Below are positions 30,278 through 34,171 of a stretch of 64,000 nucleotides of DNA, piece after piece. Within the stretch, counting starts at the first letter, position 1. Each line of letters opens with the position of its first letter. The notes under the pieces were generated by a model. It searched no databases, was not told the origin of the DNA, and saw only the letters and a program-made list of their open reading frames with translations. The DNA comes from a virus (lineage: Duplodnaviria > Caudoviricetes): positions 64,001-128,000 of IMG/VR virus record IMGVR_UViG_3300049988_000286; one strand, 5' to 3'. The translations under genes and the position numbers were made by a program.

Positions 30278-30559
30278 GTGGAAGTTAACACCTACCTTTA
30301 TGTCATCGCAGCTTCCGAGAGCGGCCCCGTCAAGATCGGTTACAGTGCTGTTCCGGAGAAACGCGTCAGGCAATTACAGACGGGGCATCCCCAGCCCCTC
30401 GCACTCTTCTACCAGCAGGGCACCGATCTCGCATCGGCGAAACTGATTGAGCGTTTGGTCCATCGCACCATCGGCTACCTGCGAAGTCACGGCGAATGGT
30501 TTGACCTCACGGTCGAGGATGCGATAGCGGAAGTGCAAGTCGGACTGATGTCTGCGTAA
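30278..30559 (+). CDS. GIY-YIG / T5orf172-like nuclease domain protein
   Basis: YLYVI...VKIGYS..PE.R..QLQTG.P...E..VH...GEWF; TAAATA-N4-GTG. Confidence 0.85.
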   Translation: MEVNTYLYVIAASESGPVKIGYSAVPEKRVRQLQTGHPQPLALFYQQGTDLASAKLIERLVHRTIGYLRSHGEWFDLTVEDAIAEVQVGLMSA

Positions 30560-30577: not shown

Positions 30578-30991
30578 ATGTGGGTTAAGCAACGAACTAC
30601 CCCAGACTTGTTCATGAAGGATTGGGTTCTGCGATTTCCGTTCGGGCACAAGATGGATACCCATGATTGCGGTCGGGTGATCCAAATCGGAGGAGGAACT
30701 GTTCATTTAGATTTCGGTGACCGGCAATTTGAATTTTGCAAAACGGATATCGTGTTTGGTATCCACTCGGTTACCGGGAAGGAAAGCTTCATCACCGTTG
30801 CGGCGGGAAGGTTCATCTCGGAATATCAGAGCAATCCAACCGGGTTGTCGATGCCGGGTAGCGACCCTGAACTCGACGCCATGGTTGCGATTCTCGATCG
30901 TATTATCGAGGATTCAAATGAAGCTTCAAAGCAACGCCCAGCCCGTCGAGGTAATCGGCGCAGTTTCGGGAAAGACAGCGTTCACGGTTAA
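30578..30991 (+). CDS. hypothetical protein
   Basis: GGAG RBS; overlaps the rIIA start. Confidence 0.55.
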   Translation: MWVKQRTTPDLFMKDWVLRFPFGHKMDTHDCGRVIQIGGGTVHLDFGDRQFEFCKTDIVFGIHSVTGKESFITVAAGRFISEYQSNPTGLSMPGSDPELDAMVAILDRIIEDSNEASKQRPARRGNRRSFGKDSVHG

Positions 30992-32922: not shown

Positions 32923-34137
32923 ATGGTACCATTTTCAGGGATGATCACCCACGATGGGACGATCACCTTCACCCATAGCGACGGACGCATTCACAGCGTC
33001 TTGACTACTCACTCGCAGTACGGGCGTGTCAAGGATTTGCTCCGCTCGATGGCGGGCCAGCCCGATGACTCACCGATCCGCGACCAGTTGCTCGAACTCG
33101 CCCAGCCCGCGCGGCTGATCACGCGATCGACGCGTGGCCTCGTCACGGTCGAGAACAACCAAGTCCTTTATCGAGGTGTGCCGGTCCGCAACGTCGTGGC
33201 GGAACGCATCCTTTGGATGATCGGCGACGGCTTCGACGCTGCCCCCATGCTGGCCTTCTTGGAGAACGTGAAGGAGAACAGCAGCAACCGGGCGGTGGAG
33301 GAACTCTACCGCTTCATGGAAGCCGCGAAGATGGGGATTACCCGCGACGGTATGATCCTCGCCTATAAGCGCATTCGTGGCGACTACCGAGACATCTACA
33401 CCGGCGAGATGGACAACAGCGTCGGGGTCACCGTCGAAATGCCCCGCAACGAGGTCAACGACAATCCGAACGAGACATGCTCGAACGGGCTGCATGTCTG
33501 CTCGATGTCCTACCTGCCCCACTACGGCGCGGGGCCGGGCAACCGTGTGGTGATCTGCCGCATCCATCCCCGCGATGTTGTTTCGGTGCCGATCGATTAC
33601 GCGAACGCGAAGATGCGCGTGTGCCGCTACACGGTCATCGAGGAAGTGACCGACCAGATGCAGGACGTGCTGGCCTCGAAGCCGGTGTTCGAGCATGAGG
33701 AAGACGCAGACGAGGCGCAGTGGTCATGGGGCGACGATGACGAGGAACTCACCGAGATCGAGATTGATGACACGGATGAGATCGATGGGATCGCCGAGTT
33801 CTTCGGAGACGATGAAGAGCTTGAAGAGGCTGAAGAGCTTGAACAGGTTCTAGAGGTTGACAATAGCGCAGCCCCCACGGAGGTAAAAACGCCGATCCTC
33901 GACTTCACCGCCTTGGTAGCGCGAGTGACCCAAGTTGTTCTAGATTGTGCGAAGGATCAGCTAAAGGTCGAGCGCATCGATCCCAACCATGTGCTGCTCG
34001 ATCTCGGCGCTGACGATCTCGATGTAATCGAATTGGTCATGCTGGTAGAAGACGTGCTTAATGTCGAACTCGGCGATGAATGGGATGCCGACAAGACTGC
34101 CAATCACATCATCGACGCGGTATTGCAGCAGATGTAA
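32923..34137 (+). CDS. rIIB: rIIB-like protein with acidic linker and C-terminal ACP-like domain
   Basis: LYRF...IT.DG..LAYK, PRNEV.DNP..TCS.GLHVC, P.DVVSVP.DY...KMRVC.Y; then DLGADDLDVIELVM. Confidence 0.88.
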   Translation: MVPFSGMITHDGTITFTHSDGRIHSVLTTHSQYGRVKDLLRSMAGQPDDSPIRDQLLELAQPARLITRSTRGLVTVENNQVLYRGVPVRNVVAERILWMIGDGFDAAPMLAFLENVKENSSNRAVEELYRFMEAAKMGITRDGMILAYKRIRGDYRDIYTGEMDNSVGVTVEMPRNEVNDNPNETCSNGLHVCSMSYLPHYGAGPGNRVVICRIHPRDVVSVPIDYANAKMRVCRYTVIEEVTDQMQDVLASKPVFEHEEDADEAQWSWGDDDEELTEIEIDDTDEIDGIAEFFGDDEELEEAEELEQVLEVDNSAAPTEVKTPILDFTALVARVTQVVLDCAKDQLKVERIDPNHVLLDLGADDLDVIELVMLVEDVLNVELGDEWDADKTANHIIDAVLQQM

Positions 34138-34143
34138 TGGGAC

Positions 34144-34171
34144 GGGGGAGCGGACGGCCCGCTCCCCCTTT
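34144..34171. terminator. terminator between convergent genes
   Basis: GGGGGAGCGG/CCGCTCCCCC plus TTT. Confidence 0.7.

Follow-up and report, generated by a model that had tools for sequence, protein, structure and literature searches.

An rIIB protein of a ~500-kb phage ends in an acyl carrier protein fold with aspartate in place of the phosphopantetheine serine

A large leaf-associated phage with a genome of 499,572 bp encodes an rIIB protein whose C-terminus holds an acyl carrier protein (ACP) fold without the serine to which phosphopantetheine is attached. The protein, designated P0001, is the product of a 404-aa ORF located in the window analysed here (the whole stretch of 64,000 nucleotides of this genome), and it consists of three consecutive parts: an rIIB core, a disordered acidic linker, and a PP-binding/ACP domain (Table 1). 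Both rIIB and phage-encoded ACP look-alikes were already known, and the new element is the fusion of a serine-less ACP fold to rIIB. In the library searched, no paper was found that links rIIB with acyl carrier protein. The domain is predicted not to be a carrier, and is most likely a protein-docking module that would provide rIIB with an additional contact.

Table 1. Features of the rIIB-ACP fusion and its surroundings (positions in the window)
Feature	Position	Strand	Evidence or remark
rIIA orthologue, 663 aa	30918..32909	+	phrog_612 RIIA, E 2.4e-118
rIIB-ACP fusion ORF (P0001)	32923-34137	+	single unbroken frame, 404 aa
rIIB conserved core, aa 1-255	32923..33687	+	phrog_609
Acidic disordered linker, aa 256-322	33688..33888	+	pLDDT 42-53
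ACP-fold (PP-binding) domain, aa 323-404	33889..34134	+	PF00550, PDB ACP matches, AF2 model
Asp365 codon, GAT	34015..34017	+	at the phosphopantetheine-Ser position of ACP; opens helix II
10-bp G+C hairpin followed by TTT	34144..34168	.	MFE -24 kcal/mol, z -3.4

The assignment of this ORF as an rIIB orthologue and member of the family is based on profile and residue evidence. A PHROG profile search matched it to phrog_609 (rIIB) over aa 7-249 with an E value of 4.9e-71, the core is ~40-47% identical to the annotated rIIB proteins of Vibrio, Escherichia, Pseudomonas, and other phages and, over aa 14-256, ~40% identical to those of T-even and Vibrio phages, and the residues that are invariant in the rIIB family are present. 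In addition, PF26926 (Phage_T4_rIIB) has been assigned to homologues of the protein in precomputed annotation, and 2,906 phage records, annotated as rIIB, were matched by tblastn. The core modelled alone by AF2 reached a pLDDT of 92; one database gene call has chosen an alternative start for it, the ATG at 32941. As in T4 rIIB, the conserved core is followed by an acidic region, and rIIA is located directly upstream. Contrary to P0001, T4-type rIIB proteins do not have the ~80-aa ACP-fold domain at the C-terminus, and P0001 also differs from T4 rIIB in its origin, a phage of ~500 kb in which the gene is found in a ClpP...rIIA-rIIB...CCA-enzyme neighbourhood.

The rIIA gene ends 13 nt upstream of rIIB, on the same strand, and this order is identical in six relatives. 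Although its frame is open from a GTG at 30717, the ATG at 30918 is the likely start, and the corresponding methionine aligns with the start of the rIIA proteins (649-745 aa) of six syntenic relatives. This protein has a GHKL-type N-terminal half with a weak HATPase_c match and a diverged C-terminal half; the GHKL-like half exhibits 55-75% identity among the relatives L082-L087. Upstream of rIIA there is a 93-aa ORF (30278-30559, + strand), while relatives L082 and L086 hold at this place a gene with a T5orf172/MUG113 domain. On the other side of the fusion, the hairpin listed in Table 1 sits between rIIB (+) and a convergent gene (-) for a CCA-adding/poly(A)-polymerase-like protein, and it is probably a terminator; it was seen on folding, and is missing from the output of a simple terminator scan.

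The C-terminal domain adopts, according to profile, sequence, and structure comparisons, the fold of carrier proteins. PF00550 (PP-binding) matches aa 338-386 with 29 bits in the context of the whole protein and with 32.2 bits when the tail is searched alone, both above the gathering cut-off of 20.8 bits, and two PHROG families named 'acyl carrier protein' match the domain as well. It is the sole PP-binding match in the whole phage genome. In the AF2 model, built with 120 homologues, aa 325-404 form four helices with a pLDDT of ~97, of which helix II comprises residues 365-379. The best structural match found by VIA-align was 4neo (Z 12.0, rmsd 1.9 Å over 79 aa), and all of the top 50 matches were carrier proteins. 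Foldseek returned carrier proteins only, with TM scores by target of up to 0.82, and a look-up in the ESM Atlas led to the same fold verdict. At the sequence level, phmmer against the PDB aligned 'DLGADDLD' of the phage protein with 'DLGADSLD' of Bacillus subtilis ACP (1f80/2x2b; E 6e-6), so that Asp365 falls on the phosphopantetheine Ser. In the motif and helix II, 19 of 27 residues (~70%) are identical to those of B. subtilis ACP, and the helix-II acids are among them.

The tail of P0001 therefore shares with AcpP (PF00550; TIGR00517) the four-helix fold, the motif region with helix II, and a high acidity (pI ~4), and differs from it in forming one part of a longer polypeptide, in which a clade-specific segment, 'LDF-x-A', comes before it. 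The original prediction, made from the letters of the DNA, had described an rIIB core, a very acidic linker, and a C-terminal ACP-like region of ~78 aa with GAT at the serine codon. All these elements have been confirmed: the core by its profile match and the adjoining rIIA, the linker by its composition (31 of the 69 residues of aa 256-324 are D/E and one is K/R), the ACP by PF00550 and by the predicted structure, which shows the four-helix carrier fold expected from AcpP, and the replacement by reading of the codon and by the alignment to the B. subtilis protein.

Not only does Asp occupy the position of the phosphopantetheine Ser, but the domain holds no other serine (0 of 82 residues in aa 323-404). 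Moreover, no match to a PPTase of the ACPS type was found in the 499,572-bp phage genome, although a host enzyme would be available. The domain also scores below the cut-offs of the AcpP equivalog models, with 32.7 bits for TIGR00517 (cut-off 70.45) and 32.0 bits for NF002148 (cut-off 71). Because of the Asp at the Ser site, the absence of any other Ser, and the lack of a PPTase in the phage, it is predicted from the sequence that this domain is not a carrier and cannot be acylated, in agreement with the non-acylatable domain that had been predicted originally. Accordingly, the name 'acyl carrier protein', which the source annotation of one relative does use, should not be applied to the rIIB tail domain, since it fails both the defining Ser and the AcpP equivalog score. 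It could be argued that the domain still shuttles an acyl or another group, either because some residue other than the canonical one is modified or because the chemistry is unusual, and the resemblance of one relative that keeps the Ser (P0033) to a modifiable AcpP points in this direction. Nevertheless, with no serine in the domain, an acidic residue at the site in nine of the ten fusions, and no PPTase encoded by the phage, this seems very improbable.

The Asp codon and the continuity of the gene are well supported by independent data. In the probable source run, the stretch is covered at a depth of 47 with zero differences, and contigs of two further runs, produced in other studies, span the domain in an unbroken frame and have positions 34015-34017 unchanged. 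The NCBI contig SECT01002047.1 (L088), with 95% nucleotide identity, exhibits the same continuous frame of core, linker, and domain, and the same Asp. The original prediction had allowed for a sequencing error or for a separate gene encoding the domain, and neither was seen in this check: the reads show no Ser at the site and neither a stop nor a frameshift between core and domain. No supporting point was found for an error of sequencing or assembly as the origin of the Asp codon or of the junction between core and domain, and such an error is practically excluded by these data and by the occurrence of the fusion in about ten protein clusters.

Comparison with L088 also reveals how the two parts of the tail evolve. 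The domain shows seven synonymous and one non-synonymous codon differences, in contrast with two synonymous and nine non-synonymous differences, plus indels, in the linker (Fisher p 0.005, in a test built on few substitutions). A third variant differs from the 404-aa ORF at three sites in the domain, all of them third-codon positions. From these 7:1 and 2:9 ratios, the amino acid sequence of the domain is maintained, whereas for the linker it is enough to stay acidic. These codon differences show purifying selection on the ACP fold, which is therefore in use and not decaying.

This contrast is important to evaluate a generic role for the tail, in which the domain would be a bulky negative appendage with no specific partner, useful for solubility, for electrostatic repulsion from DNA or the membrane, or for spacing, and the ACP fold would be merely convenient. 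In fact, nearly all rIIB homologues carry acidic and highly variable tails of 20-300 aa, with a median net acidic fraction of 0.17 (n=115), and therefore the conservation could in part be due to a role as an acidic module without specificity. The low pI of the domain, its degenerate versions in some relatives, and the absence of ACP-type tails in 80 sampled rIIB loci of IMG/VR (586 had been found by profile search), many of which have tails of other types, also fit this idea. However, a generic appendage does not account for a domain whose amino acid sequence hardly changes next to a linker that evolves freely, for the motif 'LGAD-D/E-LD' kept in most fusions, or for the presence of the same Asp-type domain in a second rIIB lineage, and we consider it improbable.

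Among 5.8 billion proteins, the rIIB-ACP fusion appears in about ten rIIB clusters. The fused relatives were drawn from the 120 best rIIB homologues, to which P0164, a fragment, was added by a search with a profile of the tail. The Ser site is occupied by D in P0001, P0006, P0007, and P0047, by E in P0003, P0004, P0005, P0008, and P0164, and by S only in P0033. Whether homologues keep the serine, a point on which the original prediction had depended, is thus answered by nine acidic residues in ten fusions, and such a residue appears to have been selected at this position among the fused relatives. Other features are less constant. The motif is retained in most fusions, as mentioned above, while sister rIIB fusions have K, C, or G at the acidic positions of helix II. 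In P0009, P0010, P0013, and P0038, there is a decayed motif in a degenerate remnant of the domain. Asp, like Ser, makes a good helix N-cap, so the preference for D or E may be structural rather than one for a phospho- or cofactor mimic; Asp or Glu may simply take over from Ser in capping or stabilising the start of helix II. A role as a phosphate mimic is also possible.

Other searches were less productive. No close relative was found in IMG/VR with P0001 as a single query, and none of 50,697 records of cultured phages was matched by the domain in a tblastn search at E 0.01. A homologue search with aa 300-404 in the 5.8-billion-protein database recovered only the query itself, on an E-value scale that is too strict for a domain of 80 aa.

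The gene context and the phylogeny of the cores provide information about the origin of the fusion. The loci of P0003, P0005, P0006, P0009, and P0033 present the same gene order as that of P0001, namely ClpP, rIIA, rIIB, a CCA-adding/poly(A)-polymerase-like protein, and an AAA_33 kinase-like protein, and DUF465 comes next in those of P0003, P0005, P0006, and P0009, while the P0033 locus stops within the AAA_33 gene. The loci that share this ClpP...rIIA-rIIB...CCA-enzyme order belong to related large phages. In a tree of rIIB cores, most fusions fall inside one well-supported clade of 15 members. P0047 belongs to a separate rIIB clade and has another gene context, yet its Asp-type domain is the most similar to that of P0001.

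The Ser-keeping protein, P0033, which reads 'GADSLD', shares with P0001 the clade-level architecture and the gene neighbourhood. Contrary to the domain of P0001, it passes both AcpP equivalog cut-offs, with 71.9 bits for TIGR00517 and 78.2 bits for NF002148, and a PPTase of the host may still modify it, while P0001 is predicted not to be modifiable. Since this Ser-keeping relative passes the equivalog cut-off, the rIIB tail domain would descend from a true ACP. In the simplest history, rIIB would have been fused long ago to an ACP that was still genuine, Ser would then have changed to an acidic residue, and drift in several lines would have followed, with the Asp-type module passing at least once from one rIIB lineage to another. 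The series that goes from Ser in P0033 to D or E, and from there to a decayed motif, would thus document how a carrier turns into a plain binding module.

The tails of rIIB proteins are modular. In P0033 (L084:6001-7458), P0009, and P0010, the core is separated from the ACP-type end by an additional small module that they share, '...QF..G.W..L.GH.C...', and P0033 also has a Cys-rich stretch that resembles a zinc ribbon.

Serine-less ACP look-alikes also exist as free-standing phage proteins. The 40 proteins nearest to the domain in a library of 1.84 billion are mostly Ser-type ACPs, with a few small ones that exhibit D or E. One of the latter, P0137 (74 aa), is of the Asp type and 49% identical to the domain over 57 aa, and its gene is found among small phage-type genes together with a Dam methylase; a search of cultured-phage records with this protein gave one weak match, in a Vibrio phage. 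Another example is Vi01_122c from Salmonella phage Vi01, which is annotated as 'acyl carrier protein', reads 'GGDDLD', and shows 53% identity over 34 aa. Like P0001, Vi01_122c and the metagenomic proteins P0137 and P0154 are encoded by phages and combine 'G-x-D-D-L-D', with Asp at the Ser site, with an ACP-like helix II. The difference is that they are the products of separate small genes, whereas the module of P0001 is covalently tethered to rIIB. A split form of the fusion in Vi01, with the look-alike adjacent to rIIB, was ruled out because Vi01_122c is encoded ~80 kb away from rIIA/rIIB. Trp387 ('DEW'), which P0137 and Vi01_122c also have, was considered as a possible common signature and was dropped, because this residue occurs in some Ser-type ACPs and is absent from the other fusions.

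Ser-type proteins were also found. An IMG/VR phage of 452,799 bp encodes a free-standing Ser-type ACP of 81 aa ('AMDSLD'; L095:1429-1674, - strand), and its rIIB has no ACP tail. The Ser-type proteins most closely related to the domain, P0123 (L089:5001-5660), P0125, and P0128, consist of a shared N-terminal domain of unassigned function ('INIE.LN..GAK.F') followed by an ACP; the contig encoding P0123 carries small unknown genes and has a phage-like look.

ACPs meet their many partners with two elements, loop I and helix II, the latter being acidic. According to the mechanism proposed here for the fusion, a domain of AcpP-type ancestry, with its attachment Ser replaced by Asp, has been kept as a folded and very acidic four-helix module, which would dock onto proteins through the face formed by loop I and helix II in the same way as ACPs do with their partners. 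The long and flexible poly-acidic linker would tether this docking domain, and rIIB would gain an additional contact. The partner of P0001 could be a host protein that normally reads AcpP, the option towards which we lean, or alternatively a phage protein, for instance the variable C-terminal half of rIIA. The computations carried out here identified no binding partner of the domain, which counts against docking. A complex prediction of rIIA with the ACP-like domain gave a score of 0.00 and, as it was run without controls, it has been counted neither for nor against binding.

A more specific version of this contact, proposed in the original prediction, is a decoy, in which the tethered apo-ACP mimic would compete with the holo- and acyl-AcpP of the host for an ACP-dependent enzyme, and titrate or inhibit it within the counter-defence exerted by rII. 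The candidate targets include an acyltransferase of lipid synthesis, an alarmone enzyme of the SpoT type, MukB, and a toxin or defence protein that requires ACP. It is in general known that AcpP binds many clients and that apo-ACP is growth-inhibitory in Escherichia coli, and both facts would fit such a role. So do the ACP-like motif region and helix-II acids of P0001, the purifying selection on its domain, and the recurrence of free-standing D/E look-alikes in unrelated phages. On the contrary, the helix-II recognition residues differ among sister rIIB fusions and the motif decays in some relatives, which indicates that an AcpP-like docking surface is not required throughout the clade and disfavours a clade-wide function as an AcpP decoy. 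Furthermore, each rIIB molecule brings a single copy of the domain, whose competitor would be among the most abundant proteins of the host. A decoy role for P0001 is therefore possible but unlikely, and the more general reading, a non-carrier docking module, continues to be the preferred interpretation.

T4 rIIA and rIIB counter RexAB. The ability to overcome Rex-type exclusion is known for T4 and for several diverged rII modules (PMC11879866), and the rII mechanism still lacks an explanation in the literature (PMC11879866), a gap that leaves room for a decoy as well. The two genes are among the oldest of molecular genetics. The fusion, rare and natural, points to a concrete surface of rIIB whose interactions can be tested, and it is of interest for this reason, and also because it ties rII to the unexplained serine-less ACP look-alikes of phages. 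If the partner were a host client of AcpP, this would point to lipid or membrane metabolism, or to another process wired through ACP, as the site of rII action, while if it were rIIA, the fusion would show how the two rII proteins assemble. The fusion might even be read as a Rosetta stone, with the free-standing serine-less look-alikes of large phages being working partners of the rII system, and the apo-ACP mimic being the arm by which rIIA/rIIB engage a host AcpP client at the membrane. We regard this extension as doubtful; if true, it would give a first molecular access to the way in which abortive infection of the Rex type is blocked by rII.

Two additional observations concern the rIIB core. 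Its C-terminal half (aa ~106-248; 33238-33666) retrieved with VIA-align a list composed mostly of proteins with the ADP-ribosyltransferase (ART) fold, headed by Arr (Z 5.5) and followed by Tpt1-like proteins, PARP, diphtheria/cholix toxins, Rhs ART toxins, ParT, and MbcT. Arr was also ranked first by Foldseek (prob 0.84), and every score of these ART-fold matches falls under the noise guidance of the tool. rIIB may thus possess an ART-like fold, which is to be taken as a lead only; a literature search for rIIB and the ADP-ribosyltransferase fold found no paper stating such a link. On the other hand, the model of aa 33-83 (33019-33171) shows three helices followed by a beta-hairpin, resembling a winged helix-turn-helix, and phmmer gave weak matches of MntR to aa 27-121 (E 0.9). 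The winged helix-turn-helix appearance of aa 33-83 fits the suggestion that rIIB is a possible transcription factor (PMC7824862).
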